Source: an uncultured bacterium (GTDB lineage Bacteria; Patescibacteriota; Patescibacteriia; CAIQCM01). From it: a stretch of 64,000 nucleotides of DNA. Shown piece after piece: positions 5,001 to 60,523 of this stretch (position 1 is its first letter; the number at the start of each line of letters is the position of its first letter). Under the pieces are notes generated by a model that was not told where the DNA came from, did not search any database, and was given only the letters and a program-made list of their open reading frames with translations. A program made the translations under genes and the position numbers. The stretch is from NCBI GenBank assembly GCA_963708045.1, contig OY970181.1:515740-579739 (forward strand). Direction: 5' to 3'.

Positions 5001-5085
5001 AGTTGTTTATTATAACGCATTATCAAAGTTTGGGCACGTAATTATTAACTTTTAACTGTTAACTGTTAACTTTTTGGAAAATAAC

Positions 5086-5757: not shown

Positions 5758-7110
5758 ATGGAAATTAGTCCAAAAATATTCAAATCCTACGATATTCGCG
5801 GTTTGGCCAATAGTGAAATAAACGAAAAGAATGCCGAACTAATCGGTCGCGCTCTTGTGGAGTATTCGGAGGCAGAGCGGGTTCTTGTTGCACGCGATAT
5901 GCGTCTTTCTTCGCCGTCACTGCTTCGTGCTCTTGAGCGCGGGATAAATGCTTCTGGCGCTGACGTAATTGATATTGGTCTGGCTTCAAACCCGCTTTTT
6001 TATTTTGCCGTATCCGAAGAATTCCGCGATGGGAAAAAGGGTGCGGGCGTTAATGTTACTGCCTCGCATAATCCCAAAGAATATAACGGCTTTAAACTTG
6101 TTCACGAAGACGGTTCGCCGATTGGCGAAGGCGCGGGAATGGAAGCGATCCGCGATCTCGTGCTGGCTCAGAAATTTGACAATCATAAGCCGGGGAAAAT
6201 TAGCGAGAAAGATTTGCTTAAAAAATATATTGAACGCATTCTCTCGTTGGTTCCCAAAGAAGCGGTGGGCGAGCGACGTGTGGTTTTTGACGCGGGTAAT
6301 GGTATGGCCGGCATTACGCTTCCTGCTTTTATTCGCGCCTACGGGATTCAGAATGAAAATTTATTTTTTGATCTTAACGGCAATTTCCCAAACCATACGC
6401 CCAACCCCGTGCAAGAAGAAACGCTTGGCGCTCTAAAAAATATGGTTTTGCAAACGCACTCGGAGCTTGGTGTGTCTTTTGATGGCGACGCTGACCGGGT
6501 TGGGTTTGTTGATGAGCGTGGCGTTTTTGTACACGGCGACATTATGACAGCGTTTATCGCTAAAGAAATGTTGCGGCGAAGTCCGGGGAGCTGGATTGTG
6601 ACGACAATTCAGGCGAGCTTGATTGTGGGCGAAACTGTTTCCGCCGCCCATGGGAAATTAGAGACCGTCCGTGTCGGCAGTCCGTTTTTAAAATACGCGA
6701 TGCGTAAGTCGGGTGCGGTTTTTGGCGGCGAGCTTTCTATGCACTTTGTATTTCGCGAAATGAATTATTTGGAAGCGCCGGAACTGGCTGTAGCGATTGT
6801 TCTGGCCGCAATAAATCGTGAGAAAAAACCTTTTTCCGAATTAATTCGGCCACTCATTAAGTACCACAAGACCGCCGAAATTAATTTTCCCGTTAAAGAC
6901 AAGGTCGCCACACTTGCTGCTTTGGAGAAAAAATATTCCGACGGCAAAGTTAATCATTTGGACGGCGTGCGAATTGATTATCCCTCGTGGTGGTTTTCGG
7001 TTCGTGTTTCTAATACCGAACCCGTCATCCGCCTAAACCTTGAAGCCAATACGGAAGAAGAAAAGAACTCGCGCCTCGCGGAGGTAATGGAAATTATAAA
7101 AAACTTTTAA
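5758..7110 (+). CDS. phosphomannomutase/phosphoglucomutase (alpha-D-phosphohexomutase family)
   Basis: FKSYDIRG N-terminal motif; active-site TASHNP; four-domain length. The ORF track starts at 5719, but ATG 5758 (MEISPKIF) is the likely start. Confidence 0.85.
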   Translation: MEISPKIFKSYDIRGLANSEINEKNAELIGRALVEYSEAERVLVARDMRLSSPSLLRALERGINASGADVIDIGLASNPLFYFAVSEEFRDGKKGAGVNVTASHNPKEYNGFKLVHEDGSPIGEGAGMEAIRDLVLAQKFDNHKPGKISEKDLLKKYIERILSLVPKEAVGERRVVFDAGNGMAGITLPAFIRAYGIQNENLFFDLNGNFPNHTPNPVQEETLGALKNMVLQTHSELGVSFDGDADRVGFVDERGVFVHGDIMTAFIAKEMLRRSPGSWIVTTIQASLIVGETVSAAHGKLETVRVGSPFLKYAMRKSGAVFGGELSMHFVFREMNYLEAPELAVAIVLAAINREKKPFSELIRPLIKYHKTAEINFPVKDKVATLAALEKKYSDGKVNHLDGVRIDYPSWWFSVRVSNTEPVIRLNLEANTEEEKNSRLAEVMEIIKNF

Positions 7111-7167
7111 CTTTTAACTTTTAACTATTAGGAAAGACCTAAAAGTTAACAGTTAACAGTTAACAGT
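7103..7167. repeat. heptamer-repeat palindrome: (AACTTTT)x3, spacer, (GTTAACA)x3
   Basis: Tandem 7-mers overlap the phosphohexomutase stop, and the inverse array ends 7 nt before the murI ATG. Confidence 0.8.
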
Positions 7168-7173
7168 TCGGCA

Positions 7174-10581: not shown

Positions 10582-13005
10582 ATGAATATTTTAGTTTCCG
10601 ATAAGTGGCTTCGTGAATACGTTAAAATGAAGCAAAATCCCGAAGAATTTGCCGCGCTTATTTCTAAAGCCGGTCCTTCGGTTGAACGGATTGCCAAACT
10701 TGGCGCGGACTTGGATAAAGTCGTTGTCGGGAAAATTTTGTCGCTTACAAAACATCCGAATGCTGACAAGCTTAGGTTGACAGTGATTGATGTTGGGAAT
10801 AAAAAACTCAACATTGTTTGCGGCGGCGTTAATCTTTATGAAAATCAACTGGTCGCCGTCGCACTTGTGGGCGCCCGCGTGCGTTGGTCTGGAAAAGGTG
10901 AACTCATGGCGTTAGAACCGGCGACGATTCGCGGTGTTGCTTCCGAAGGAATGATTTGTGGCGCAAACGAGATTGGTCTTGTTGATCGTTTCCCGGCTAA
11001 AGAGGAAAAAGAGATCGTTGACCTCACGGCATTTGGATACAAACCCGGGACGCCGCTCGCTACCGCTCTTGGACTGAACGACTGCGTTTATGATATTGAA
11101 GTGACTAGCAACCGTCCGGACGCGCTTGGTATTGTTGGCTTGGCGCGCGAGGCGGCGGCGGCAACTGGCGGGGAATTTTTATGGAAAGAGTCGGTTTTAA
11201 AAGTTTCCGCCAAAGGTGGATCTGCTTCGAGTAGAAACAATTCTAAGTTAAAAGTTAATATTCAAACCAAGAAAAATTGCTTGCGCTTTCAAAGCGCGGT
11301 GATTGAAGACGTAACGGTCGGCGCATCGCCCGCGTGGATGCAGGGCAGGCTTATTGCCGCCGGATTGCGGCCGATCAATACGATTGTGGATATTACGAAT
11401 TACGTGATGTTAGAATTTGGTCAGCCGCTTCATGCTTTTGACGAAGCAGCTGTGCCTGGCCGCGTCATCAAAGTGCGCGAGGCAACGGAAGGAGAAAAGA
11501 TCGTCGCCCTCAACGGCAAGGAATATGCTCTGAAGCCGGGGATGATGGTCGTTGCGAATGCGACGACGCCGCTTGATATTGCCGGGATAATGGGCGGCAA
11601 GGGGAGTGGGACGACGGTGCAGACAAAAAATATAATTTTGATCTCGGCTTGCTTTAGCGGTCTTTCTGTTCGCCGCACCGGCCGCGCGCTTAACTTGCGT
11701 TCCGATGCCGCGATGCGTTTTGAGAAGAATATACCACAAGGACTTACCGCACCAGCGATTGCGCGCGCCGCTGAACTGGTGCTTTCGCTTTGTGGTGGGA
11801 AGATAACCGCAATTAGTGATGTTGCTTCCCAAAAACAAACCCCTAAGCACATCGTGGTCTCGCTAAAAGATCTTTGTGCAAAAATTGGCGTCAATTTGTC
11901 CGCCGCCATCGTTAAAAAATATTTGTTGGCACTTGGTTTTGCGGTTACGGCGACGGCAAAAAATATTTCTGTTCGTGTTCCGTATTGGCGCGAAGGCGAT
12001 ATTTGTATCCCCGAAGATTTAATTGAAGAAGTCGCCCGTCTTTATGGCTATGAGCGCTTACCGTCCTTGCTTCCGCCAAATGCTGTTTCGGGCGAAGCGC
12101 CAAATCCAATTTTTGACGCCGAGGACGTAGTCCGTAACTCTCTCGTTAATGCTGGTGCGACCGAGCTTATTAGTATTTCCCTTGTTGGCGATGAGCTGGT
12201 TAAAAAAAGTTGCGAAGCAGACGCGCCGGCAATGCGTTTGGCAAACCCACTTAATAACGAAATGACAATTTTGCGGCCGTCGCATCGCGCTCGTCTTTTG
12301 GAATGCGCGAGCCGGAACGAAAAAATTTCTGGCGCTGGCGAAGTTTTTGAGATCGGCAATGTTTTTGTTCCCGATGCCGACACCGATCGCACGCCCTTGG
12401 AAATTTTAAGTCTTGGTATTGCCGTGTGGGGCAAAGACGAAACGGGTACACAATTTTATCGCGCCAAGGGGTTGCTTACTCGCGCGGCTTTGGCAACCGG
12501 CACAACCCTAACTTTTGGCAAAGATTTTCCCAAAGACGGTTTTTGGCATCCTGGTCGCAGTGCCTCGGTGCATCTTGGCGCGGCGGTAATCGGCACGGTT
12601 GGTGAATTGTCGCCCGAAGCGCTGAGTGCGGCGGGAATAGAATCGCGCGTTGCTTTGACGCTTGTTGATTTTAAGGAGCTGGTGCGGAGCGGATCAAAAA
12701 ATCCTAAGTTTGCTGGTATTCCTCCGTTTCCGCCAGTACTGCGCGATGTCGCCTTTATTTTGCCGCGCGAGGCGGAGCACGAATTTCTCGTCGCCGCCTT
12801 TTTAGCCGTTCATCCGCTCATTGTTTCCGTTGAACTGTTTGATCGTTATGAAGGTAAAAATATGCCTGAGGGTAAGAAGAGTTTGGCCTATCACTTGGCT
12901 TATCAGTCGCCCGAACGCACGCTAACTTCCGAAGAAGTTGAAGTTGTTCATGCTAAGGTTTTAAAAATGCTTGAAAATAAATTTGGCGCCGTAATCAGAA
13001 CATAA
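10582..13005 (+). CDS. pheT: phenylalanine--tRNA ligase beta subunit
   Basis: N-terminal tRNA-binding domain (KHPNADKLRLTVIDVG); B3/4 and B5 domains; FDRYEGK C-terminal anticodon-binding region. Confidence 0.95.
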   Translation: MNILVSDKWLREYVKMKQNPEEFAALISKAGPSVERIAKLGADLDKVVVGKILSLTKHPNADKLRLTVIDVGNKKLNIVCGGVNLYENQLVAVALVGARVRWSGKGELMALEPATIRGVASEGMICGANEIGLVDRFPAKEEKEIVDLTAFGYKPGTPLATALGLNDCVYDIEVTSNRPDALGIVGLAREAAAATGGEFLWKESVLKVSAKGGSASSRNNSKLKVNIQTKKNCLRFQSAVIEDVTVGASPAWMQGRLIAAGLRPINTIVDITNYVMLEFGQPLHAFDEAAVPGRVIKVREATEGEKIVALNGKEYALKPGMMVVANATTPLDIAGIMGGKGSGTTVQTKNIILISACFSGLSVRRTGRALNLRSDAAMRFEKNIPQGLTAPAIARAAELVLSLCGGKITAISDVASQKQTPKHIVVSLKDLCAKIGVNLSAAIVKKYLLALGFAVTATAKNISVRVPYWREGDICIPEDLIEEVARLYGYERLPSLLPPNAVSGEAPNPIFDAEDVVRNSLVNAGATELISISLVGDELVKKSCEADAPAMRLANPLNNEMTILRPSHRARLLECASRNEKISGAGEVFEIGNVFVPDADTDRTPLEILSLGIAVWGKDETGTQFYRAKGLLTRAALATGTTLTFGKDFPKDGFWHPGRSASVHLGAAVIGTVGELSPEALSAAGIESRVALTLVDFKELVRSGSKNPKFAGIPPFPPVLRDVAFILPREAEHEFLVAAFLAVHPLIVSVELFDRYEGKNMPEGKKSLAYHLAYQSPERTLTSEEVEVVHAKVLKMLENKFGAVIRT

Positions 13006-50331: not shown

Positions 50332-52347
50332 ATGCAGTTTAGAGAAATAAAAAACTGGAAAATAAAAACCGGCCCGTTTGTGATGGTCGGGGTAATTGTT
50401 TTTAGTATCTTTTTTTCTTTAATAAAACCCAACGTTGCTTTGGCTCATCCCGACTTGGGTTTGCATGCGGCCTCAATCGTGTGGTTAGACGAAACGCATA
50501 TTCGCGTTACCTACGATTGGTCAACTGCTGATCAAGTCTCGGATTGGGTGACAACAATCGGCGGGGCTATTACTTGGAATTCTGGAAGTTCAACCGTTTC
50601 AGTTGGTGGAGGGTGGGGAGATATACGAGGTATGCAGTGGGTGCGCCCAATTGCGGCCTCGTCGGTCACGGCTCATGCTAAATCTGCGCCGACTTATTTT
50701 ATAAATATGTATACCAATCTTCCGTCTGATTGGTATACAAATCCAAGATGGGATCCAACCCCAGGGCTTGGCACAATCTATTATGACCACCCGCGACAAT
50801 TAGTTGTAAACGGTGTTTCTTATATCGATGAAGCAAGTTGGGATGTTGGTTTGCTTGAGCGAAGTACTTGGTATGATTTTTTATTCACTGCAAGTCCGTC
50901 AGTAATTACAACATGGTCTAGTGTAGCAAATACGGGTGGGGCAACATTCAGCAAGACCGGGTCTTATGATTTAAGCACCGATGGTCGCGTGGGTGTGGGT
51001 GCTTATGGAGTTTCACCAACCGAATGGGGGACGATCGTCATTGAAGGCGAAATTTCATTACCGTCATACACCCTTACCTATACTGCCGGTGCGAACGGTT
51101 CAATTACTGGTTCCTCGCCACAAACGGTTCATCAAAATTTTGACGGCACGCAAGTTACTGCTACTCCTGCCGCGAATTACCACTTCACGAGCTGGTCCGA
51201 CAGTGTCCTTACCGCCGCGCGCACTGATTTGAATGTAGTGGGAGATATAACGGTCACCGCCAACTTTGCGATTGACACCCACACCCTCACCTACACCGCC
51301 GGCGCAAATGGTTCAGTTACCGGTACTAATCCGCAAACCATTAATCACGGCTCCGACGGTACCGCCGTCACCGCCGTTCCCAACTCGGGTTATCGCTTTG
51401 TTGATTGGTCGGATACTTCAATAATAAACCCGCGCACGGACACGAATGTGACAACCAATCTGGCTGTGACGGCTAACTTTATGGCAAACAGACGCCCTCC
51501 AAGCAGCAGTGGCTCATCGGTAGTTCTTTCGCCATCAATCACAATCCGCACACCGGCGAGCGGCGTATCATATAATGCCGACGCAATCGTTGGCCTTGAT
51601 TGGTCATCGGCCAATGGCGCCTTTACTAAATACAAAATTTATTACTCATCGGATAATGGCACAACTTATTCGGCGATTGGCGAAACAACCTCAACTTCGT
51701 TAAGTTGGACTGTTCCCGACGTCGGCACAACGCAAGGAAAAATAAAAGTTGAAGGTTATGATGCCGCGAGAACTCTGCTTGCTTCGGCAACTTCAAACGG
51801 AAACTTTGTCGTGGTCGGCGATGCAATACTGGAATCAGAAGAGGGAACACAACCAACCACAACACCGCCTGTCACCGACTCAACCGCGACCGGAACTTAT
51901 TCTCCCACTGAAGCGCTGGAAAATACTCCCGACATCAATACCGACATGAACCTCACGCTAGTCGCGCCATCACTCTGCACCTCAGGCTCACTCATTAAAG
52001 GTTCGCTTTCTTCAGTTTATTACTGCGGCGCTAATGGCAAGCGTTATGTCTTTGTGAACGACCGCGCTTACTTTAGCTGGTACCAAGACTTCTCAACCAT
52101 TAAAACTATTTCCGACGCCGACCTCGCCTTAATCCCGCTCGGGGGCAACATTACTTATCGTCCCGGCTCCCGAATGATCAAAATCCAATCCGACCCCAGA
52201 GTCTACGTTATTTCTCGTGGCGGCATCTTGCGCTGGGTTAGCTCCGAAGCCATCGCCGCCGCACTCTATGGCGCGAACTGGGCAACAATGATTGACGATG
52301 TCTCTGATGCCTTTTTTGTAAATTATACAGTTGGCGCGCCGATTTAG
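50332..52347 (+). CDS. cell-surface protein with two Listeria-Bacteroides (flg_new-type) repeats
   Basis: Duplicated HTLTYTAGANGS.TG..PQT...DGT.VTA.P...Y.F..WSD ... TANF units; signal peptide/TM at the N-terminus. Confidence 0.5.
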   Translation: MQFREIKNWKIKTGPFVMVGVIVFSIFFSLIKPNVALAHPDLGLHAASIVWLDETHIRVTYDWSTADQVSDWVTTIGGAITWNSGSSTVSVGGGWGDIRGMQWVRPIAASSVTAHAKSAPTYFINMYTNLPSDWYTNPRWDPTPGLGTIYYDHPRQLVVNGVSYIDEASWDVGLLERSTWYDFLFTASPSVITTWSSVANTGGATFSKTGSYDLSTDGRVGVGAYGVSPTEWGTIVIEGEISLPSYTLTYTAGANGSITGSSPQTVHQNFDGTQVTATPAANYHFTSWSDSVLTAARTDLNVVGDITVTANFAIDTHTLTYTAGANGSVTGTNPQTINHGSDGTAVTAVPNSGYRFVDWSDTSIINPRTDTNVTTNLAVTANFMANRRPPSSSGSSVVLSPSITIRTPASGVSYNADAIVGLDWSSANGAFTKYKIYYSSDNGTTYSAIGETTSTSLSWTVPDVGTTQGKIKVEGYDAARTLLASATSNGNFVVVGDAILESEEGTQPTTTPPVTDSTATGTYSPTEALENTPDINTDMNLTLVAPSLCTSGSLIKGSLSSVYYCGANGKRYVFVNDRAYFSWYQDFSTIKTISDADLALIPLGGNITYRPGSRMIKIQSDPRVYVISRGGILRWVSSEAIAAALYGANWATMIDDVSDAFFVNYTVGAPI

Positions 52348-52351
52348 CCGA

Positions 52352-52447
52352 ACTGTTAACTTTTAACCTTTAACTTTTAGTTAGAAAATATCTCCGTCAC
52401 ATCGGAGATATTTTAATTCGCCAAAAGTTAAAAGTTAACAGTTAAAA
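52352..52447. repeat. heptamer palindrome: (AACTKTT)x4, terminator hairpin 52385-52414, (AAAAGTT/AACAGTT)x4
   Basis: Same GTTAACA-type family as 5045-5070 and 7103-7167. Confidence 0.85.
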
Positions 52448-52484
52448 GTTAGTTAAAATTTGCATCTATGCTACAATTTAATAA

Positions 52485-53042
52485 ATGCTGACCGAACTTG
52501 CGAATGAAAAAGAGTTGGCTGAACGGGCGACGAAAGACGGTGACGCTTTTGCCGCGCTTTACGATTTTTATTTTCCAAAAATTTGGGCGTACACGATTAG
52601 GCGCGTCGGACACACGGAAACGGCTGAAGATATTGTTTCACAAATATTTTTAAAAATTACCGAAGCTTTGCCGCGCCGAAAAAATAACGCGCCCTTTGGC
52701 GCTTGGGTTTTTCGGATCGCTACAAATACAATCATTGATCATTATCGGGCAAGTGGTCGGCACCGTGAAGAAGAAATCGTTGCCGCGGAAAATATTCCCG
52801 AACGCGGTTTAGCTCCTGACGAATTTTCCGAGGCTAGGCTCGTGTTTAGAGAAATAGAAACAATCCTCGGCGAACTTCCCGAGCGCGACCGACGCATTGT
52901 TCACCTTAAATTTTTTGCCGGCTTAAGTAACGGTGAAATCGCCGTAACGGAAAAAACTAAAGAGGGGAATATAGCAATAATTGTTCATCGGGCGCTTCAA
53001 AAAATACGTAAACAGAGCAAATTTTATGGAAAACTTGAATAA
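52485..53042 (+). CDS. ECF-subfamily RNA polymerase sigma-70 factor
   Basis: Region 2 (YDFYFPKIWAYTIRRVG...AEDIVSQIFLKI) and region 4 HTH (LPERDRRIVHLKFFAGLSNGEIA); TACAAT box 7 nt before the ATG. Confidence 0.85.
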   Translation: MLTELANEKELAERATKDGDAFAALYDFYFPKIWAYTIRRVGHTETAEDIVSQIFLKITEALPRRKNNAPFGAWVFRIATNTIIDHYRASGRHREEEIVAAENIPERGLAPDEFSEARLVFREIETILGELPERDRRIVHLKFFAGLSNGEIAVTEKTKEGNIAIIVHRALQKIRKQSKFYGKLE

Positions 53043-56000
53043 TCAAGACGAAAAAAACTTAAATAGCGAAGAGGTAAAGCGTAATGAAAACACTGGCGGA
53101 GCGTTGGAAGAGATGGAGAGCAAAATCTCCATGCTTATCAACCATAATAATACGGACGCCTCAGACAAATTCCGCGAATCGTTAAAAACGCGGGTACTTG
53201 AGGCGCACGCCAAAAATAATATGCCTCGTTTTTCCGGCTTTAAGAATTTGATCGGATTTTTTTCCGCTCGCCGCTTTTCGTTTGCCATAACGATCGTTCT
53301 CTTGCTCGCGGTCGTCGGCGGTGTTTTGCTTAATGGTTATTTTGGCGGACGCGAACGGAGTATTGCTAAAATTTTTATTAATCCCGCCTACGCCGCCGAC
53401 GACTTTTCACTTGTCTCGCTTGCGGCTGATTCCGCCGGTGTTACTCCCGATTCGGTCTACAAACTCACAAGCAAAGAATCGTTTTCCACGGCCGACATTA
53501 AAGCTGGACTAAGTCTGACGCCAACGATGGAGGTCGGTGTCAAACAAACAGCGGATAAAGAATGGATGATTACGCCGAGTGAAAAATTGCCAGCCAATTC
53601 GCTTTTAAAAATTGCCCTTGCCGCGGCAATAAACGACAACGGAACAATCACGACGCGCGATTTTTCTTGGGCGTTTCAAGTTAAAGATCATTTCCGCGTT
53701 CTTAATTCGCTTCCTGGGAACGCGGCAACCTCGGTCCCGGTGAATACGGGTATAGAAGTAACTTTTAGCCATCCAAACTTAAATGGCTATGAAAAATATT
53801 TTGCCATTAGTCCCGAAGTTAAAGGACGTTTTGAATATCACGCCCGCACCGCCGTTTTTGTGCCAACCGAACCACTCAAGGCTGGTGAGCTTTATACGGT
53901 GACCATTGGCGCTGATCTGGTACTAACCGAATCCACCGAAAAATTGGGCGAAGATTATAAATTTAGTTTTGAAACGGCTAAAGAAACCAAAGACGCTGGC
54001 GGTTATGAAAATTGGTTTGGCGTTAATGAAAAAATGGTGCAATTCAGTTCCGACGAAAGTCCGTTCATTGGTGTTTATGGCGACACCAAGGCGCAAACCA
54101 CGGCTAATGTATATTCGTTTTCTTCGGCCGACGCTTTTCTTGCGGGTATAAATGAACGCAATAAATATCCGCGCTGGACGGAAAAATGGAATAATTATCA
54201 CTATGATGTTTCGGGGCTTGCCAAAGTCACGTCGTTTACGCCAAAAATTGAAACGCAAAATTACGCCAACTTCTTTGTTTTCCCGTCAAAATTGCCGATT
54301 GGTTTTTATCTCACCGAAGTCGCGTATCAAAACAAAACTTTCCAAGTCTGGATGCAGGTGAATGATTTAAACGTTTTTTACAACATTGATATTAACCACA
54401 CGCTGGTTTGGGTAAACCGGATTGGTGGCGTTTCGCCGGCTACCGAGGCGACGGTTTCGGTCGGTGATTTGGTACAAAATGTAAAAACGGACGCTAGTGG
54501 CGTGGCAACGTTTGATATTCCGGCGGCGTATCAAGATGCCAAAAGCAAATATGCCGACCAGCCGCTTTATCTAATTGTTCGCGCGGGCGCCTCAACGATG
54601 ATTACTGATTTTTATCCCGGCGGGAAAACAGCCGCCAGTCGTTGGTCATATTTTTATACCGACCGCCCGCGCTATCAATCAACCGATACGATTCATTTTT
54701 TTGCGATGACTCGGGATCGCGCGAGCGGCATCGCCTCGCCCGGAAAATACTCGGTAATTCTCCGCAAATCCGGTTGGTACGATTATTATTACAACCCGGT
54801 AAAAATTGTTGAAACCGAAGTTGCGCCGGACGCCTACGGCACAATGACGGGCGCGCTTTCGCTTGCCGATTTGCGCCCCGACTACTATGAAGTCGCGCTT
54901 ACGCTTGACGGCGAAACAATTGCGACAAGCTGGGTAAATGTTCTCCCTTATACCAAACCGGCCTACTCAATTTCGGTAACTAACGACCGCGCCGCGGCCT
55001 TCTCGGGCGAACAGATAAATTTTACCGCGACGGCGAAATTTTTTGACGACACGCCGGCCGCCGGAATTAAAATGAAGGTCGTAGACGAATTAGGGATAAA
55101 GATTGGCTCTTTCACGACCGACGAACAAGGACAAATAACTTTTTCTTCAACCCAAGATTACGACGGAACAAAATATTGGCCGCAATGGAAGTATTTTACC
55201 GTTAGTCCAGAGTCGTCGGAGCTTGGCGACATTAGCGGCTCGGCAAACGGCGCTTGGTACGGTCCGCGCGTTTACGGAACAAGCGAAGTTAAGTATCCGG
55301 AAAAAGGCCGCGCCGAATTAAAGATCAAAGTTCGTAACGTTGATATTAACAAAATTAATTTCCCAAATAACGTGCAATGGGATGAAGATTGGCAAGGGTC
55401 GGATCCGGCTGCGGGCATAAATATTTCTGGCGAAGTAATAAAGATTACTTACAACAAGGTTGAAACTGGTACAGCTTATGACTTCATCAACAAAACGTCT
55501 TATAAAACTTATCGTTACGATCGGGTGGAAACAAAAGTTGACACGCTTTCGCTTGTAACTGGCGCGGACGGTATGGCGCGTTACAGTCGCGCGGTTGAAC
55601 CGAACACTTTTTACAACATAAATTATAAAATCAGCGACGCGGCGCATCGCACCGAAGCGCACAACGACGGCTTCTATTATTATGACGGCAATACTTATTA
55701 TCGCGATTATTTCTCTTACGGGGAAAATGCGCAACCGACAATTGAATTTAACACGAGCGACCGTCTGTATTCGCTCGGCGACAAGGTTAAAGCGACGCTT
55801 TCGCTTAACGCTAAGCCGGTTTCCATGGCGCAAACTGACCGCATTCTTTTTGCCAAATACCAAAACGGTCTAAAGAGCTTTGTGGTGCAAGGGAGCCCAG
55901 TTTATGAATTTAATTTTTCCGAAAGCGATGTTCCTAACGTTCAGCTTTTTGCCGCCTGGTGGGATGGAAAAAATTATCACACGGCGCGAACCGACGGCTG

Positions 56001-58620
56001 GTGGGGGATGAGCGACGGCGGCGCGAAATATAAATATACTGATCGCGAACTCACGATTGACGCCGCTTTTGATAAAACGACGTATGCGCCAGGGAGCGAC
56101 GCTAAATTTTCAGTAACGGTTAAAGACAAGAATGGTCGTCCGGTCGCCGCCGCTCTAAATCTTAATTTGGTTGACGAAGCGTATTACGCGATTGCGAATA
56201 GCTCGGCAAATCCGCTCCAAAGCATCTACACGCCGCAATATTCGGGAATCATTGATTCGGCGGAAACGCAAGAACCGCCGCCTTCGGCCACGGCCGGCGG
56301 TGCGGAACGTGGTGGCTGTTTTGCCCCTGGCACGATGATTACGATGGCTGATGGTAGCAAAAAGGCGATTGAAAAAGTTAAAGTTGGCGACAAGGTGGCG
56401 ACACTCGCGAATCCGCTTAACGCCGATGTTGTAACAGGAACAGTTGGCGCGGTTTTTGAGCATACCGCGAATAAAATGATTTCCGTTAACAACGGACTTC
56501 TCAAGGCTACACCCGAACATATGATCTATGCGAGCGGCACTTTTAAAACCGCTGGCGAAATTGCGGTTGGAGATGTACTCCTTGGACTTAACGGGAAAAA
56601 GACGGTTGTCACTTCGGTTAAAGTTGTTTTTGAAAAAATTTCCGTCTACAATTTGCGTGTTGATCCATATCACACCTTTATTGCAAACGGTATCTATGTT
56701 CACAATGACAAGGACGGCGCCGTGCGTCAGAACTTTGTTGATGTCGCGCTTTTTCGCACGGTCACAACCGATAGCGCAGGCAAAGCGACAGTTGACTTTA
56801 AGTTGCCGGATAACGTTACTTCTTGGCGGCTTACGACACAGGCGATTGGTGCTAATCTTTCAGTCGGAATGTCCACACAAAAAATAAAAACCACCTTGCC
56901 GGCTTTTGTTGACGTTACCATTGGTAAGGATTATCTCGTAGGCGATCAGGTTGTTGCTAAACTGCGTTCGTTTGGTACGAACCTTACAGCCACGGACGCG
57001 GTTTCTTACGCTGTTACTTCGGAAGGGCTTGGCAACGCCTCATTTTCTTTTGCAACCGAAGGCAAAGCGTACCGTCCGACCGAAGTTAATCTGCCACCGC
57101 TCACATCGGGAAATTTCAACGTTACCTATTCAATGAAAAGCCAAAAAGGAAATGACGCCGTGCTTTTGCCGCTAAACGTTTCCAAGTCGTTTTTGCGGAT
57201 CAATAAAATCCTTTCATCCACTGATGTTTCGCCCGGGGTAAAGTTTTCTGCGCCTGGCGCAACTGACTCCGTAAAAATTACTTTTGCCGACGCGAGTTCA
57301 ATGAAATTATATCGGCCGCTTTCGGAACTTAGCTGGAGTTGGGGAAAACGCGTTGACCAAACGCTCGCGCATTCGCTTGCCGCCGATTTGCTTCTTAAAT
57401 ACTTTAAAGAAGATTGGCACGAAAATACTTTTGACGGCAGCGCGTATCAGCAAGCTGATGGCGGCATCGCGATTTTGCCTTACGGTTCTTCGGATATGGA
57501 TCTTTCGGCGCGTCTCGCGGCTTTAGCGCCGGAAAAATTTAGCGTCTCGGCGTTACGTCAATATTTTATGGCGGAAATTGATTCCAAGAATGCGACGCCC
57601 GAGACGGTGACTAACGCGCTTTTGGGTTTGGCGTCGCTCGGTGATCCGGTTTTGCCGCGGTTAGAGCTCTGGAAAGATAGAACTGATCTGACAATAGAAA
57701 GCCGCATGCGCGTTGCTCTCGCTCTTTACAAGGTCGGCGCGAACGAAGATGCGCGGATGATTTATAACGATGTGCTAAAGAGCGGCGAAAGTCGCGGTGC
57801 GTATTATCTCTTGTCCGGCAAAGACGAGAACGAAACATTACTGCGCACGGCCTTTTTGGGCGAACTTGCGGCCGCGCTTAATATGCCGGAACGCGACGCG
57901 CTCTGGGCTTACGTTACTGATCATAAATATGATAAAAAAATTGAAGTCCTGACCAACCTTGAAGATTTGTCGTTTGTTATGTTGGCTATCCCAACACTTA
58001 CGCCCGGTCCCTCTAAAGTCGCTTACGAACTTAAGGGAATGAAAAATGAAATTGATCTGAATGGCTGGGGTCAAAAAGTAATCAGACTTCAGGCGTCGGA
58101 ACTTGATAAATTGAACATCACCTCGGTGGAAGGAAAAATCAGCGCGGCGGTTTCTGCGGATGCTTCTATCACCGAAGTTGATCTGGTCGCGAACAAGGAC
58201 GTTTCCATTACCCGATCATATTCGGTGGTCGGCGGCGCCGATAATACAACCGACTTTAAGGACAATGATATTATTCGTGTGACGATTGACGTAAAAATTT
58301 CGCGCAATTCGCCGAGTCGTAATTATCAGGTGACGGACATTCTTCCGGCTGGCTTAATTTCGGCGACAAATGTTTATGACGCGTATCGTCCTTATGACAA
58401 CTATTGGAGCAACCCGTTTGATGTAAACGGCCAGCTTGTTTCCTTTAATGTTTGGAAGTACGGCGATCCGGATAAATATGGAAATTATTCGGAGACGATT
58501 CATTATTACGCCCGAGTAAAAACAAAAGGCAGTTACAAGGCCGAGCCGGCGATTATTCAGGCCTTTTCTGACCCAGGAACGATTAATTATTCTTCGGCTG
58601 GAATCGTAACCGTTAAATGA
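53026..58620 (+). CDS. anti-sigma-like giant membrane protein with alpha-2-macroglobulin-like MG domains and an internal Hint domain
   Basis: ATG 53026 overlaps the sigma gene by 17 nt (the track starts at TTG 52981); ~85-aa cytoplasmic N-region then one TM helix (FAITIVLLLAVVGGVLL); YFYTDRPRYQSTDTIHFFAMTRD resembles the A2M MG-domain motif TDRPIYRPGxTVHF; Hint domain at nt 56317-56706; ends with TGA. Confidence 0.55.
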   Translation: MENLNNQDEKNLNSEEVKRNENTGGALEEMESKISMLINHNNTDASDKFRESLKTRVLEAHAKNNMPRFSGFKNLIGFFSARRFSFAITIVLLLAVVGGVLLNGYFGGRERSIAKIFINPAYAADDFSLVSLAADSAGVTPDSVYKLTSKESFSTADIKAGLSLTPTMEVGVKQTADKEWMITPSEKLPANSLLKIALAAAINDNGTITTRDFSWAFQVKDHFRVLNSLPGNAATSVPVNTGIEVTFSHPNLNGYEKYFAISPEVKGRFEYHARTAVFVPTEPLKAGELYTVTIGADLVLTESTEKLGEDYKFSFETAKETKDAGGYENWFGVNEKMVQFSSDESPFIGVYGDTKAQTTANVYSFSSADAFLAGINERNKYPRWTEKWNNYHYDVSGLAKVTSFTPKIETQNYANFFVFPSKLPIGFYLTEVAYQNKTFQVWMQVNDLNVFYNIDINHTLVWVNRIGGVSPATEATVSVGDLVQNVKTDASGVATFDIPAAYQDAKSKYADQPLYLIVRAGASTMITDFYPGGKTAASRWSYFYTDRPRYQSTDTIHFFAMTRDRASGIASPGKYSVILRKSGWYDYYYNPVKIVETEVAPDAYGTMTGALSLADLRPDYYEVALTLDGETIATSWVNVLPYTKPAYSISVTNDRAAAFSGEQINFTATAKFFDDTPAAGIKMKVVDELGIKIGSFTTDEQGQITFSSTQDYDGTKYWPQWKYFTVSPESSELGDISGSANGAWYGPRVYGTSEVKYPEKGRAELKIKVRNVDINKINFPNNVQWDEDWQGSDPAAGINISGEVIKITYNKVETGTAYDFINKTSYKTYRYDRVETKVDTLSLVTGADGMARYSRAVEPNTFYNINYKISDAAHRTEAHNDGFYYYDGNTYYRDYFSYGENAQPTIEFNTSDRLYSLGDKVKATLSLNAKPVSMAQTDRILFAKYQNGLKSFVVQGSPVYEFNFSESDVPNVQLFAAWWDGKNYHTARTDGWWGMSDGGAKYKYTDRELTIDAAFDKTTYAPGSDAKFSVTVKDKNGRPVAAALNLNLVDEAYYAIANSSANPLQSIYTPQYSGIIDSAETQEPPPSATAGGAERGGCFAPGTMITMADGSKKAIEKVKVGDKVATLANPLNADVVTGTVGAVFEHTANKMISVNNGLLKATPEHMIYASGTFKTAGEIAVGDVLLGLNGKKTVVTSVKVVFEKISVYNLRVDPYHTFIANGIYVHNDKDGAVRQNFVDVALFRTVTTDSAGKATVDFKLPDNVTSWRLTTQAIGANLSVGMSTQKIKTTLPAFVDVTIGKDYLVGDQVVAKLRSFGTNLTATDAVSYAVTSEGLGNASFSFATEGKAYRPTEVNLPPLTSGNFNVTYSMKSQKGNDAVLLPLNVSKSFLRINKILSSTDVSPGVKFSAPGATDSVKITFADASSMKLYRPLSELSWSWGKRVDQTLAHSLAADLLLKYFKEDWHENTFDGSAYQQADGGIAILPYGSSDMDLSARLAALAPEKFSVSALRQYFMAEIDSKNATPETVTNALLGLASLGDPVLPRLELWKDRTDLTIESRMRVALALYKVGANEDARMIYNDVLKSGESRGAYYLLSGKDENETLLRTAFLGELAAALNMPERDALWAYVTDHKYDKKIEVLTNLEDLSFVMLAIPTLTPGPSKVAYELKGMKNEIDLNGWGQKVIRLQASELDKLNITSVEGKISAAVSADASITEVDLVANKDVSITRSYSVVGGADNTTDFKDNDIIRVTIDVKISRNSPSRNYQVTDILPAGLISATNVYDAYRPYDNYWSNPFDVNGQLVSFNVWKYGDPDKYGNYSETIHYYARVKTKGSYKAEPAIIQAFSDPGTINYSSAGIVTVK
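56317..56706 (+). other. Hint / mini-intein-like domain (130 aa) embedded in the giant protein
   Basis: Block A CFAPGTMITMADGS, block B TPEH, block G HTFIANGIYVHN; the residue after the terminal Asn is Asp, not Cys/Ser/Thr. Confidence 0.6.
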
Positions 58621-59513
58621 CAAAGAAAAGAACAATAATTTTGTTTTTTGCCGCCGTCGCTTTTTTTGCGGCGGCGGCTTTGGGATTTTTGTTTTTTAAA
58701 AAAACAGAACAACCAATAATGCAAACGGCAAAAAATAATTATCAACGCATTCCGATTCTGGATATTTTTTACGATAAGGAAAATTTTGTTAATGCCGAGG
58801 CAATGGCCAAAGACACAAAGACCGAAGTTGGCGTAAAAGCCGTGGTCGTGCCGCACCACCTGCTCGCATCGCGCCTTGTTGCCGATGCCCTTGCGCGCGC
58901 CAAGGGGAGTAATTATTCGCGGATTGTGATTGTGGGGCCGAATCACGACGACCGCGGCGCTGATGTTGTTACTTCGTCGGCGATTGAATACGATACGCCG
59001 GTCGGCGTGGTTTTGCCCGACGAAGAAAAAATAAATTTGTTTAGAACAGCTTTTGCTTGCCGCGCGGGCAGTGACGTATTTTTAGGTGAACATTCCATTG
59101 GTGCCATCGTGCCGTTTGTGGCCGAAGCGTTTCCAAACGTAAAAATAATTCCCATCATTATTTCGTCACACGCGGGTGACCTTGATGCTCGTAAACTCGC
59201 AGATTGGCTTCGTCGTCTTCCGGCAGATACGCTTGTGATTTTTTCCGTTGATTTTTCTCACTATAAGACCGAGGCAGAGGCCGATGTTTATGACCAAGAA
59301 ACTGCGTCCGCGCTTATGAGTCGTGACAATTCTAAAATTGAAGGCTGGGGGAATGAACACATTGACTCGCCGTTTACAATCGCGACGATGTTGCTTTATG
59401 CCGAAAAAATCGGCGCCAATATCAACATTGTCGCCAACAAAAACGCCAACGATTTTCTGTCACAAAAAGTAGATTCAACAACGAGCTATTTTGAGATAGT
59501 GGCGAGCAGATAA
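58617..59513 (+). CDS. Memo-like protein (MEMO1 / AmmeMemoRadiSam system protein B family) with an N-terminal membrane anchor
   Basis: VVPHH...IVIVGPNHD...GEHSIGAIVPFV...FSVDFSHY match the Memo family metal-site motifs; ATGA overlap with the preceding gene. Confidence 0.6.
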   Translation: MTKKRTIILFFAAVAFFAAAALGFLFFKKTEQPIMQTAKNNYQRIPILDIFYDKENFVNAEAMAKDTKTEVGVKAVVVPHHLLASRLVADALARAKGSNYSRIVIVGPNHDDRGADVVTSSAIEYDTPVGVVLPDEEKINLFRTAFACRAGSDVFLGEHSIGAIVPFVAEAFPNVKIIPIIISSHAGDLDARKLADWLRRLPADTLVIFSVDFSHYKTEAEADVYDQETASALMSRDNSKIEGWGNEHIDSPFTIATMLLYAEKIGANINIVANKNANDFLSQKVDSTTSYFEIVASR

Positions 59514-59522
59514 TGGACCATG

Positions 59523-59603
59523 TACCACGCACCATGAACCACACTAATGAGTAGTTATTGGTTTATGGTACATGGTTCATGTTTTATGGTTCATGACAAA
59601 ACG
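59523..59603. repeat. heptamer palindrome (ATGNACC)x4, centre, (TGGTWYA)x5 at the start of the rpsB upstream region
   Basis: Left array 59523-59550, right array 59569-59603. Confidence 0.8.
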
Positions 59604-59794
59604 CATCTTGCCCCAAAACAGGTTTTATAGTAAGATCATTGAATCGCCAAAAAGAGCGATTTTTTATTCAATAAATCCGTCAAATGACGGAAAAATTCCC
59701 CGCCGAATGGCGGGGCAAGCAGGCGTTGCGTCCGATGGCCTTCTCCGCGTAAGCGGGGTGCAAACGCCGGTGTTAAAAAGGTCAGACAAAAACT

Positions 59795-60523
59795 ATGCCT
59801 TATTCAATACCTAATTTAGTGGAAATGCTTTCCTCGGGAATGCATTTTGGCCACCGCTCTTCGCGTTGGCACCCCAAGATGCAGCCGTACATCTTTGCCG
59901 AAAGAAATGGCGTTCACGTCATTAATTTGGAAAAGACGGCCGAGCTTCTTTCGGTAGCGCTTGGATACATTCGCGACATTGTCGCGGCCGGCGGCACAAT
60001 TCTTATCGTCGGAACCAAGGAACAAGCGCAAGCGATTACCGAACGCGTGGGCAAGGAAACGGGAATGCCGTACGTTCATTTGCGCTGGCTTGGCGGAACG
60101 CTTACGAACTTCCGAATGCTTAAAGAAAATTTACTAAGCCGCTACCTTGATCTTAAGAGCAAGCGCGACAAAGGCGAACTTGGTAAGTACACCAAAAAGG
60201 AACAGCTTGAATTTGCAAAGCAAATTGAAGAACACGACGTTAAGATCGGTGGCTTTGCCAATCTTACCAAGCTTCCAGAAGCGGTTTTCATTATTGATCT
60301 TAAAACCGAAGTCACGGCTTTTGCCGAAGCCTTAGAAACAAAAACGCCAATTGTCGCCATTTGCGACACCAATGTTAACCCAGACGGCGTTTCCTACGTG
60401 ATTCCAGCAAATGACGACGCGGTCAAGTCTATTGATCTTATAATGACGCTTGTTGCCGAGGCAGTTAAAGAAGGCAAAAAACTCTACGCCGACCGGCCGA
60501 TTATGCCGCCCTCGGCCAAATAA
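59795..60523 (+). CDS. rpsB: 30S ribosomal protein S2
   Basis: MLSSGMHFGHRSSRWHPKM N-terminal signature. Confidence 0.95.
   Translation: MPYSIPNLVEMLSSGMHFGHRSSRWHPKMQPYIFAERNGVHVINLEKTAELLSVALGYIRDIVAAGGTILIVGTKEQAQAITERVGKETGMPYVHLRWLGGTLTNFRMLKENLLSRYLDLKSKRDKGELGKYTKKEQLEFAKQIEEHDVKIGGFANLTKLPEAVFIIDLKTEVTAFAEALETKTPIVAICDTNVNPDGVSYVIPANDDAVKSIDLIMTLVAEAVKEGKKLYADRPIMPPSAK

Follow-up and report, generated by a model that had tools for sequence, protein, structure and literature searches.

The stretch of DNA analysed here (hereafter the window) is 64,000 nucleotides long and belongs to an uncultured bacterium of the Patescibacteriota, a lineage of the Candidate Phyla Radiation (CPR), where it covers positions 515,740 to 579,739 of the forward strand of contig OY970181.1 (GenBank assembly GCA_963708045.1). 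Three genes on the same (+) strand fill positions 52485-59513 of the window and encode, in this order, an extracytoplasmic function (ECF) sigma factor, a large protein of the alpha-2-macroglobulin (A2M) family carrying an embedded Hint domain, and a Memo-like protein (Table 1). The sigma and A2M genes overlap by 17 nt and the A2M and Memo genes by ATGA, the Memo gene being translationally coupled to the A2M gene. Our open reading frame (ORF) calls agree in this respect with an earlier note on the same DNA, which had described three coupled genes. We propose, with evenly balanced confidence, that the locus equips this Patescibacteria (CPR) bacterium with a protease-trap module at the cell surface and that the module has a transcriptional feedback loop of its own.

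The arrangement is not confined to the window. In a scan of one genome per GTDB species with a query alignment of 10 sequences, the A2M family, which is uncharacterised, proved to be large, with at least 586 confirmed loci. Among the listed matches, almost all bear Patescibacteria names (Magasanik-, Uhr-, Falkow-, Peregrini-, Collier-, Doudna- and Saccharibacteria, Gracilibacteria and others), and a few are from WOR-1, Dehalococcoidia and Clostridia. ORFs were called and clustered in 86 loci, and only three families recur around the A2M gene, namely A2M itself (in all 86), Memo (in 62) and the sigma factor (in 40). Memo lies directly downstream of A2M in 61 of the 79 loci with enough flanking sequence, usually with an overlap of 4 or 1 nt, and the sigma gene directly upstream in 36 of the 71 loci that could be assessed. 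Genes flanking the module vary from locus to locus, and the order sigma/A2M-Hint/Memo is found again, at 27-38% identity, in loci whose flanking genes are unrelated. Since only these three families recur amid differing flanks, the arrangement is not due to chance, and the conservation of gene order in relatives on which the earlier interpretation depended is present.

A search seeded with Memo revealed the A2M and Memo pair, lacking both the Hint domain and the sigma gene, in the cultured Firmicutes Petroclostridium sp. X23 and Symbiobacterium terraclitae. Because these pairs occur with neither of the two, A2M and Memo constitute the conserved core, to which the Hint domain and the sigma factor are add-ons dominant in CPR bacteria. 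The triad suggested earlier therefore stands as a recurrent arrangement and not as an obligate one, as A2M and Memo occur by themselves in Firmicutes and about half of the examined loci include a sigma gene. Many metagenome-assembled genomes titled 'uncultured Gammaproteobacteria' or 'Pseudomonadales' bear a CPR-type locus (L010, L012, L015, L019, L020, L026, L029, L031-L033 and others), with 30-38% identity to the query and CPR-like neighbours; the taxonomic labels of these genomes look unreliable.

The large protein has a genuine A2M fold and is anchored by one N-terminal transmembrane (TM) helix; it has a disordered bait loop, a domain resembling the thioester domain (TED) and a C-terminal macroglobulin (MG) domain. 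Pfam matches were obtained for Big_5 (residues 223-317), bMG3/MG2 (456-577), A2M_BRD (907-1055), PT-HINT, A2M (1241-1311) and bMG10 (1727-1850), and none for a thioester domain. Alignment of the family to thioester-bearing A2Ms with hhalign gave a probability of 100% over 1469 columns, and profile matches extended to ECAM of E. coli and to Salmonella A2M. The same two proteins were the top Foldseek matches (1e-46 and 2e-43, respectively) of our AlphaFold2 (AF2) model of residues 665-1864 (pLDDT 83.7, pTM 0.65), and the A2M assignment made previously is thus confirmed. The model superposes better on protease-activated ECAM (4ziq, 4rtd; TM-score 0.40-0.42) than on native ECAM (0.26). It is also closer to induced human A2M than to native forms (0.21-0.26).

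The thioester motif CxEQ is absent from the large protein, as had been noticed before, and from all of the 30 closest family members, whereas most of the distant A2Ms of the same search carry it. In the hhalign alignment GCxEQ falls on G-K-R1442-V-D-Q, so that the cysteine is replaced by the invariant Arg1442; the only cysteine among the 1864 residues is Cys1098 of the Hint domain. Of 78 full-length homologues, Hint-bearing or not, 70 have the sequence GxRx(D/E)Q, which also occurs in Petroclostridium. Since it is family-wide and independent of the Hint domain, the family is thioester-less through an ancient Cys-to-Arg replacement. A CTEQ sequence in the Hint-less homologue L076 was considered as a thioester and rejected, as it belongs to another helix and matches by chance.

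These features also bear on whether the large protein is a trap at all. An alternative is that it serves an episymbiotic CPR cell as an adhesin or for contact with the host, reusing the fold of A2M and thioester-containing proteins, and that the Hint domain frees a fragment at the host surface or attaches one there. Giant surface proteins of CPR bacteria are generally thought to mediate host attachment (PMC8080830), and the missing thioester, the N-terminal Big_5 domain and an AF2 model nearer to activated than to native ECAM would all be in keeping with such a use. We consider it unlikely, since the protein keeps all parts of the trap apparatus (the bait loop, the TED-like domain and the MG domain at the C-terminus), the A2M family and its Memo partner are also found in free-living Firmicutes, and MagD, an A2M likewise without thioester, traps protease non-covalently (PMC5764988).

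The Hint domain (PT-HINT, E 2e-14; intein_Cterm above cut-off) has Cys1098 as its nucleophile, TPEH as block B and a terminal His-Asn pair ending at Asn1227, followed by Asp1228 in the +1 position. The domain had been recognised in the earlier note; its boundaries are corrected here to residues 1098-1227 with D1228 as the +1 residue, and its location within the bait region had been missed. It is a clean insertion into a Gly-rich linker that joins the bait-region domain to the MG domain after it, and it is flanked there by GAExGG on the N-terminal and GGGxR..F.D on the C-terminal side, and in Hint-less relatives this linker is continuous. The part of the linker before the Hint domain is Gly-rich and variable in length among homologues, the approximately 21 residues before Cys1098 form the longest disordered stretch of the AF2 model (pLDDT 26-39), and the C-terminal junction is likewise poorly ordered. 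ECAM has the domain order MG-BRD-MG-CUB/TED-MG10 (BRD, bait-region domain) with a disordered bait (PMC4498604). In a profile alignment, which is firm at the level of domains and approximate at the level of residues, the Hint site maps to ECAM ~948-956, just after the disordered, protease-cleaved bait R923-L942, and it also falls at ECAM Arg956, a residue in contact with the C-terminal MG domain once cleavage has taken place.

Conservation of the catalytic residues is nearly complete. Among 79 homologues, Cys1 and the block-B TxxH are present in all, the terminal His-Asn in 78 and Gly at position -1 in 76, and the domain is always 128-131 aa long with no endonuclease. The +1 residue is Asp in 29, Glu in 26, Ala in 12, Gln in 6, Ser in 4 and Asn in 2, i.e. 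it is non-nucleophilic in 75 of the 79. A domain of 130 aa with no endonuclease, and with no +1 nucleophile in the window or in these 75 homologues, is not a canonical (class 1-3) intein. Judged by its residues, the Hint domain carries everything that is needed for the N-S acyl shift and for Asn cyclisation. The type-A bacterial intein-like (BIL) domains work in this manner: an N-terminal thioester forms, the C-terminus is cleaved by Asn cyclisation, and cleavage products dominate, with some ligation (PMC4031507).

Pairwise identities of the Hint domain and of its host protein are correlated (Pearson r = 0.72), which indicates that the two co-diverge; the Hint domain is more conserved than the host (45% vs 32% identity), and no pair combining a near-identical Hint domain with a divergent host was found in the homologue comparison. 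By this comparison of sequences it is a domesticated, vertically inherited autoprocessing module and no mobile intein. A degenerate selfish intein which has lost its +1 nucleophile and is tolerated as a functionless insertion in a flexible loop seems highly improbable to us. Insertion would indeed be least harmful in the disordered loop where the domain is located, and Hint-less relatives function with a continuous loop, but an inactive insertion would not retain Cys1, TxxH and His-Asn, which are essentially invariant in homologues whose hosts are only ~32% identical. The greater conservation of the domain than of its host, its constant length, the missing endonuclease and the lack of any sign of recent transfer also speak against such an insertion, as does the fact that Cys1098 is the sole cysteine of the window protein.

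The gene upstream of A2M encodes a sigma factor with matches to Pfam Sigma70_r2 (3e-13) and r4_2 (2e-9) and to TIGR02937 (3e-26). With regions 2 and 4 only in its 185 aa, it is a sigma factor of the ECF type (group IV), as assigned before; no model of a specific ECF subgroup was matched above its cut-off, the best being TIGR02952 (115.7 bits vs 206). The 84 N-terminal residues of the A2M protein are cytoplasmic and are followed by the single TM helix. This layout, in which the gene lies directly downstream of the sigma gene with a 17-nt overlap and its product has a cytoplasmic N-terminus and a single TM helix at 85-105, had been compared to that of an anti-sigma factor, and it is found as described. 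Residues 1-84 form a putative anti-sigma module, for which the support from sequence comparison is good. Where a sigma gene lies directly upstream, the TM helix starts at a median residue of 70.5 (range 36-123); where there is none, the median is at most 25 (range 3-68, an upper bound), and the difference in length before the TM helix is significant (Mann-Whitney p = 2.7e-10). In each of the 21 long-form loci, no stop interrupts the A2M frame between the sigma stop codon and the TM helix, whereas the other two frames contain ~4-8 stops, and substitutions in the N-terminal extension between close relatives are biased to third positions (148 vs 88 at position 1 and 61 at position 2). The open frame and this bias together indicate that the extension is translated. 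Ahead of the TM helix lies a conserved helix with the motif P-x-x-x-F-x3-L-K-x2-I-L-x2-R.

No other conserved neighbour fits as an anti-sigma factor in the 86 clustered loci. In the distant homologue P0025, a weak match to zf-HC2 (E 0.017) coincides with the zinc anti-sigma motif H-x3-C-x2-C. P0025 (L005:3027-8935) is a high-GC homologue with this classical motif, LLAHMVGCVSCRTF, at its N-terminus; its gene overlaps its own sigma gene by 4 nt, neither Hint nor Memo is present, and downstream of it, on the other strand, is a VanY gene. A Pfam scan at E values up to 5 gave no match in 9 CPR N-termini, and when 5.8 billion proteins were searched with a profile from the alignment of N-termini there were no matches either, so that the module was not found on other ectodomains.

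Motifs of promoter type are present both upstream of the sigma gene and inside the A2M gene. The sigma gene of the window is preceded by an extended -10 element of the housekeeping type, TGCTACAAT, which ends 7 nt before its ATG. The leaderless-type box recorded previously is thus present at this place, as a putative promoter. In the relatives L086 and L088, TGCTACAAT or TGCTAGAAT followed by 7 nt and ATG is kept. As a promoter, TGCTACAAT implies a leaderless sigma mRNA. Because it is of the housekeeping type, the sigma factor of the window clade would need post-translational control. In 14 long-form loci a different motif, TGTAAT-N16-CGT(T/A) (P1), lies upstream of the sigma gene, and the start codon follows 5-9 nt beyond it; this short distance implies leaderless, autoregulated sigma mRNAs. 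P1 leaves no room for a ribosome-binding site at L013:4351-4376, L016:2147-2172, L021:4298-4323, L034:4375-4400, L071:4389-4414 and others, and such mRNAs appear to be common in CPR loci. Other clades have the ECF-like motifs CGCAAC-N16-17-GTGTTA and TGTAAGA-N15-CGTTATA in the same place.

The motif found in front of many sigma genes is also present inside the A2M gene, a feature that the earlier note had not reported. This internal motif (P2) consists in the window of CGTAAT (53080-53085), a 16-nt spacer and CGTT (53102-53105), and it lies in frame within the first 30-50 A2M codons in 21 of 21 long-form loci. In every locus the first codon of P2 is TGT or CGT (Cys/Arg), and the Leu codon is invariably preceded by GCG, TCG, CCG or ACG (Ala/Ser/Pro/Thr), although over the whole gene NCG and CGT codons account for only 12-31% of their synonymous families; the sequence of the 16-nt spacer is free to vary. 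Since the codon changes alter the amino acid yet keep the DNA motif, selection acts on the DNA of P2 and not on the peptide, and we infer that P2 has promoter activity.

The ATG of Met30 lies 7 nt after the CGTT of P2, a geometry that matches the spacing between promoter and ATG at the sigma genes, and this position is occupied by ATG, ATG, ATG and GTG in the four window-clade loci. An in-frame ATG, which in the window is that of Met66, is also found 115-133 nt after the CGTT of P2 in 21 of 21 loci, and sigma-less homologues begin near the equivalent of Met66. Met30 and Met66 are candidate alternative starts. A stronger version of this would be that one of the two is the true start of the A2M protein, in which case the overlap with the sigma gene is an artefact of ORF calling and the protein has no cytoplasmic domain. 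The promoter-like motif and the conserved Met codons 3' of the annotated start, as well as the start of the sigma-less homologues, could be taken in this sense, but the frame that is open in all 21 loci amid stops in the other two and the third-position bias make it quite improbable.

The third gene encodes a Memo-like protein with matches well above cut-off to Pfam PF01875 (E 3e-25, 89.3 bits vs 27) and to TIGR04336, AmmeMemoRadiSam protein B (E 6e-30, 104.5 bits vs 26). It aligns to human MEMO1 across the PH, GPxH, EHS and DFxH motifs, and PHH, GPxH, EHS and DFSH are conserved in 62 Memo partners, which agrees with the previous description of a signal-anchored Memo-like protein. As an N-terminal hydrophobic helix is present in 58 of these 62, the Memo partner is exported or anchored outside the cell. 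A PGA_cap domain (CapA/PgsA-like, PF09587) is fused to its C-terminal end in ~18 loci, and six of these fusions were confirmed by Pfam; this hints, from domain composition, at an activity related to envelope polymers. AMMECR1 and radical-SAM partners are absent from the module and its conserved neighbours in the window and the 86 loci.

The positions of the features described above are collected in Table 1.

Table 1. Features of the sigma/A2M/Memo module in the window and comparable features at other loci
Feature	Position	Strand	Basis or remark
Extended -10 of housekeeping type, TGCTACAAT	52469..52477	+	Ends 7 nt before sigma ATG
ECF-type sigma factor, 185 aa	52485..53042	+	Pfam/NCBIfam profile matches
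TM-anchored, thioester-less A2M-family protein with embedded Hint, 1864 aa	53026..58620	+	Start ATG 53026
Internal ECF-type promoter motif P2, CGTAAT-N16-CGTT, codons 19-27	53080..53105	+	Cross-locus conservation
ATG of Met30, 7 nt after P2 CGTT	53113..53115	+	Candidate leaderless start, isoform without residues 1-29
ATG of Met66, ~8-19 residues before TM	53221..53223	+	Candidate alternative start, form without cytoplasmic domain
Single TM helix, residues 85-105	53278..53340	+	Hydrophobic stretch SFAITIVLLLAVVGGVLLNGY; AF2 helix 85-105
Extracytoplasmic Big_5 and MG domains through bait-region domain, residues 223-1055	53692..56190	+	Pfam, hhalign, AF2 beta-sandwich domains
Bait-like disordered linker IDSAETQEPPPSATAGGAERGG, residues 1076-1097, ends at Hint junction	56251..56316	+	Longest stretch of AF2 pLDDT < 50
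Hint domain, type-A BIL kind, residues 1098-1227	56317..56706	+	PT-HINT, intein_Cterm, conserved catalytic residues
C-terminal half: MG (PF00207), CUB/TED-like alpha-helical domain (~1425-1657), C-terminal MG10	56746..58575	+	Pfam A2M, bMG10; AF2 helices 761-993 of model
GKRVDQ at thioester-motif position	57343..57360	+	hhalign
Signal-anchored (exported) Memo-like protein, 298 aa	58617..59513	+	Pfam Memo, TIGR04336
Terminator-like hairpin and T-run, 3' of Memo gene	59641..59670	+	Consensus scan only
Hint-less, sigma-less A2M+Memo core, Petroclostridium sp. X23 (CP124862.1)	L089:2993-8939		TM anchor, no CxEQ, GERVDQ
Hint-less, sigma-less A2M+Memo core, Symbiobacterium terraclitae	L090:3136-9098		TM anchor, no CxEQ
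Memo-PGA_cap fusions	L024:8113-10047, L029:10040-11917, L030:10135-11904, L041:7417-9189, L084:10255-12030, L028:10187-11490		

The genes flanking the module in the window are housekeeping or unrelated genes, with genes for a release factor and for an InlB-repeat protein on the upstream side and rpsB, tsf and gap on the downstream side. The InlB-repeat protein (671 aa; window 50332-52347) carries divergent InlB B-repeats (Flg_new_2) and is encoded directly upstream of the module in the window and in the closest relative of the window (L086:939-2987); it is absent from the other loci. It is probably another surface protein, outside the conserved module. On the other side, the hairpin and T-run following the Memo gene is the probable end of the operon, as judged from its sequence. 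An 80-aa ORF between the Memo gene and rpsB (59572-59814) has no Pfam matches and contains terminator-like hairpins on both strands (59641-59662 on the + and 59698-59715 on the - strand); it is probably a non-coding spacer. Heptamer-periodic repeats, (A)AAGTTAA(A/C) in three to four copies, occur as intergenic inverted arrays which flank or form long hairpins, with 11 matches against 0.12 expected. They are found at 52355-52377(-) and 52424-52446(+), where they flank a terminator-like hairpin just 5' of the sigma promoter, and also at 5044-5073, 7103-7168 and 11244-11259. The repeat may be a genome-specific REP-like or terminator element. A generic scan for sigma-70 promoters and terminators was uninformative, as its counts equalled those of shuffled sequences. 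Scans of the window for tRNAs and Rfam families found nothing, and PADLOC gave no match to a defence system.

In the mode of action that we favour, the A2M protein would trap attacking proteases non-covalently after cleavage of the bait, by analogy with MagD. The Hint domain, once exported, would process itself between Gly1097 and Cys1098 and between Asn1227 and Asp1228 in the manner of a type-A BIL domain, which would leave a two-chain or re-ligated mature trap and would correspond in its role to the furin-type processing of complement C3/C4/C5. The cytoplasmic N-terminus of the A2M protein would sequester the sigma factor. When the ectodomain is destroyed or shed, intramembrane proteolysis would set the sigma factor free, and the freed factor would fire P2 (and P1 where it is present), so that more trap and more Memo are made, the surface is restocked and the loop is closed again. 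The product of P2 would be, in the window clade, a leaderless isoform starting from Met30; outside this clade, the conserved Met just before the TM helix may be its start. Memo could act as an accessory metalloenzyme or a docking partner on the trap or the envelope, with a logic comparable to that of PbpC or the Mag partners.

Several points weigh against this reading. Protease trapping by the family is assumed from the fold, and the activated-like AF2 model could reflect either a non-trapping use of the fold or an artefact of modelling. The idea that the Hint domain compensates for the loss of the thioester was rejected, as there is no correlation between the two and Hint-less members also have GxRxDQ. 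The 80 loci that were kept are the best matches to a Hint-bearing query, and the frequency of the Hint domain (79 of 86) is therefore biased upward. Because the Hint domain lies ~1000 residues from the membrane, its cleavage alone would not yield a substrate for a site-2 protease, and the earlier suggestion of a module that reports its own cleavage to the cytoplasm needs revision on this point. The P2 pattern is not enriched in the window taken by itself (2 matches vs 0.95 expected), and since this is not significant, it is the conserved position across loci that makes the case for P2. That P2 always precedes a leaderless in-frame start was also considered and rejected, as this holds in only ~7 of 21 loci. 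A sigma gene is missing from about half of the loci examined, and no internal copy of the promoter was found in clades with a short N-terminus when these were searched with each clade's own motifs; the feedback loop is therefore lineage-specific. Finally, the N-terminus of the window protein belongs to no known anti-sigma family, and the cytoplasmic helices that AF2 places at residues 23-38 and 47-64 have low confidence (pLDDT 34-70). The earlier suggestion that the A2M protein serves as the anti-sigma factor thus finds agreement in the layout and in the co-occurrence with a sigma gene, and none in a match to a known family.

These last points would suit a simpler scheme in which the sigma factor regulates A2M and Memo while the N-terminus of A2M is no anti-sigma factor and mainly carries the internal promoter and the translational coupling, the sigma factor being controlled elsewhere or transcriptionally. 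The apparent conservation of the peptide (C/R)N....(A/S)L, which is partly a DNA motif, points in the same direction as the missing family match and the low AF2 confidence for residues 1-84. We find this scheme doubtful for the following reasons: the segment 3' of P2 is under coding-type selection and contains the conserved helix F...LK..IL..R, the N-terminal extension and the sigma gene co-occur (p = 3e-10), the distant homologue P0025 has a zinc anti-sigma motif, there is no other conserved partner at the locus to act as the anti-sigma factor, and the promoter of the window-clade sigma gene is of the constitutive type.

It is also conceivable, and to our mind not probable, that the A2M ectodomain is itself the sensor of a protease-alarm pathway, in which the Hint domain pre-cuts the bait or holds a backbone Gly-Cys thioester there in place of the lost TED thioester and a foreign protease frees the sigma factor. 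A protease attack would then trigger the trap, the C-terminal fragment would be shed, and the membrane stub would become open to intramembrane proteolysis, with release of the ECF sigma factor. The sigma factor would fire the promoter inside the coding sequence of its own anti-sigma factor and thereby supply fresh trap, possibly as an isoform that does not bind sigma. If true, an A2M conformational trap would here serve for the first time as a transmembrane signalling receptor, and a Hint domain for the first time as a bait-processing or warhead element built into the protein.

In comparison to known bacterial A2Ms, the closest in sequence and structure are those of type I (E. coli ECAM/YfhM and Salmonella A2M), which provide the best matches and have the same domain order; their CLEQ thioester, lipoprotein anchor and PbpC neighbour are all lacking here. 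The family shares with type II A2Ms (P. aeruginosa MagD and E. coli YfaS) the A2M fold, the bait region, the missing CxEQ, the association with the membrane and the partners encoded in the same operon (PMC5764988). It differs from these in having its own N-terminal TM anchor, GxRxDQ at the thioester site and an exported Memo-like partner instead of MagA/B/C/E/F, in its occurrence in CPR bacteria and Firmicutes and not in Gram-negatives, and in the bait-region Hint domain and upstream ECF sigma gene of many of its members. Families of the six-gene mag/yfa operon were not found in the clustering of the 86 loci, and the neighbours in the window are unrelated to them.

The Hint domain shares with the type-A BIL domains and the PT-HINT family Cys1, the block-B TxxH, the C-terminal His-Asn, the lack of a +1 nucleophile, the mini size and secreted hosts. 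In contrast to them, it is found at one fixed, critical site (the A2M bait) with vertical inheritance across many CPR phyla, and it is located neither before a toxin nor in a hypervariable region of an adhesin. The Memo-like protein shares PF01875 and TIGR04336 above threshold and the His/Asp motifs with MEMO1 and AmmeMemoRadiSam protein B; unlike these, it is exported or signal-anchored, is coupled to A2M and not to AMMECR1 and radical-SAM genes, and is fused to PGA_cap in ~18 loci. For signalling, the nearest precedent is RsgI/SigI, where a membrane anti-sigma factor has a self-cleaving (autoproteolytic) SEAL ectodomain whose fragments are expected to stay associated until the signal (bioRxiv 10.1101/2023.06.27.546760). 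The SEAL domain of RsgI is juxtamembrane and its loss directly licenses site-2 protease, whereas the Hint domain is distant from the membrane and of another fold and chemistry; SigI, moreover, is not an ECF-type sigma factor. As for the place of processing, Janssen et al. reportedly found in 2005 that in complement C3/C4/C5 the anaphylatoxin and the maturation cleavage site are located at the equivalent of the A2M bait (an insertion in MG6), giving a two-chain protein. Complement proteins are processed by external proteases (furin, convertases), whereas a built-in Hint domain could act autocatalytically.

Papers on CPR bacteria mention A2M domains only as a putative defence against host proteases (PMC8080830, PMC9793634). 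We found no description in the published literature of an A2M combined with an anti-sigma factor, an ECF sigma factor, an intein/HINT domain or Memo, and no mention of an A2M-linked arrangement in the paper on ECF reclassification; the view that the arrangement matches no described system is in accordance with this. Taken as a whole, what had been observed earlier is correct in every detail that could be checked, and its interpretation is supported in part: the domains, the absent thioester, the layout and the synteny stand, while an obligate triad and a known anti-sigma family do not.

Two types of bacterial A2M system are currently distinguished, one thioester-bearing with PbpC and the other thioester-less with the Mag operon. 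The present family, with a Hint domain embedded in the bait and a fusion linking ECF sigma control to a putative anti-sigma module, would be a third. The A2M and Memo family is found in hundreds of CPR species and in cultivable Firmicutes, and it provides the enigmatic bacterial Memo family with a concrete extracytoplasmic context. Its Hint domain, domesticated and vertically inherited, lies at the mechanistically most sensitive site of an A2M. Petroclostridium and Symbiobacterium offer experimentally tractable entry points to the Hint-less A2M and Memo core. The arrangement suggests a protease trap that doubles as the sensor of an ECF sigma factor, with the target promoter written into the coding sequence of the anti-sigma factor. 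As a gene of 5.6 kb has been kept across many CPR lineages with tiny genomes and a cell-attached way of life, it is likely to be central to their survival against the proteases of hosts or competitors.

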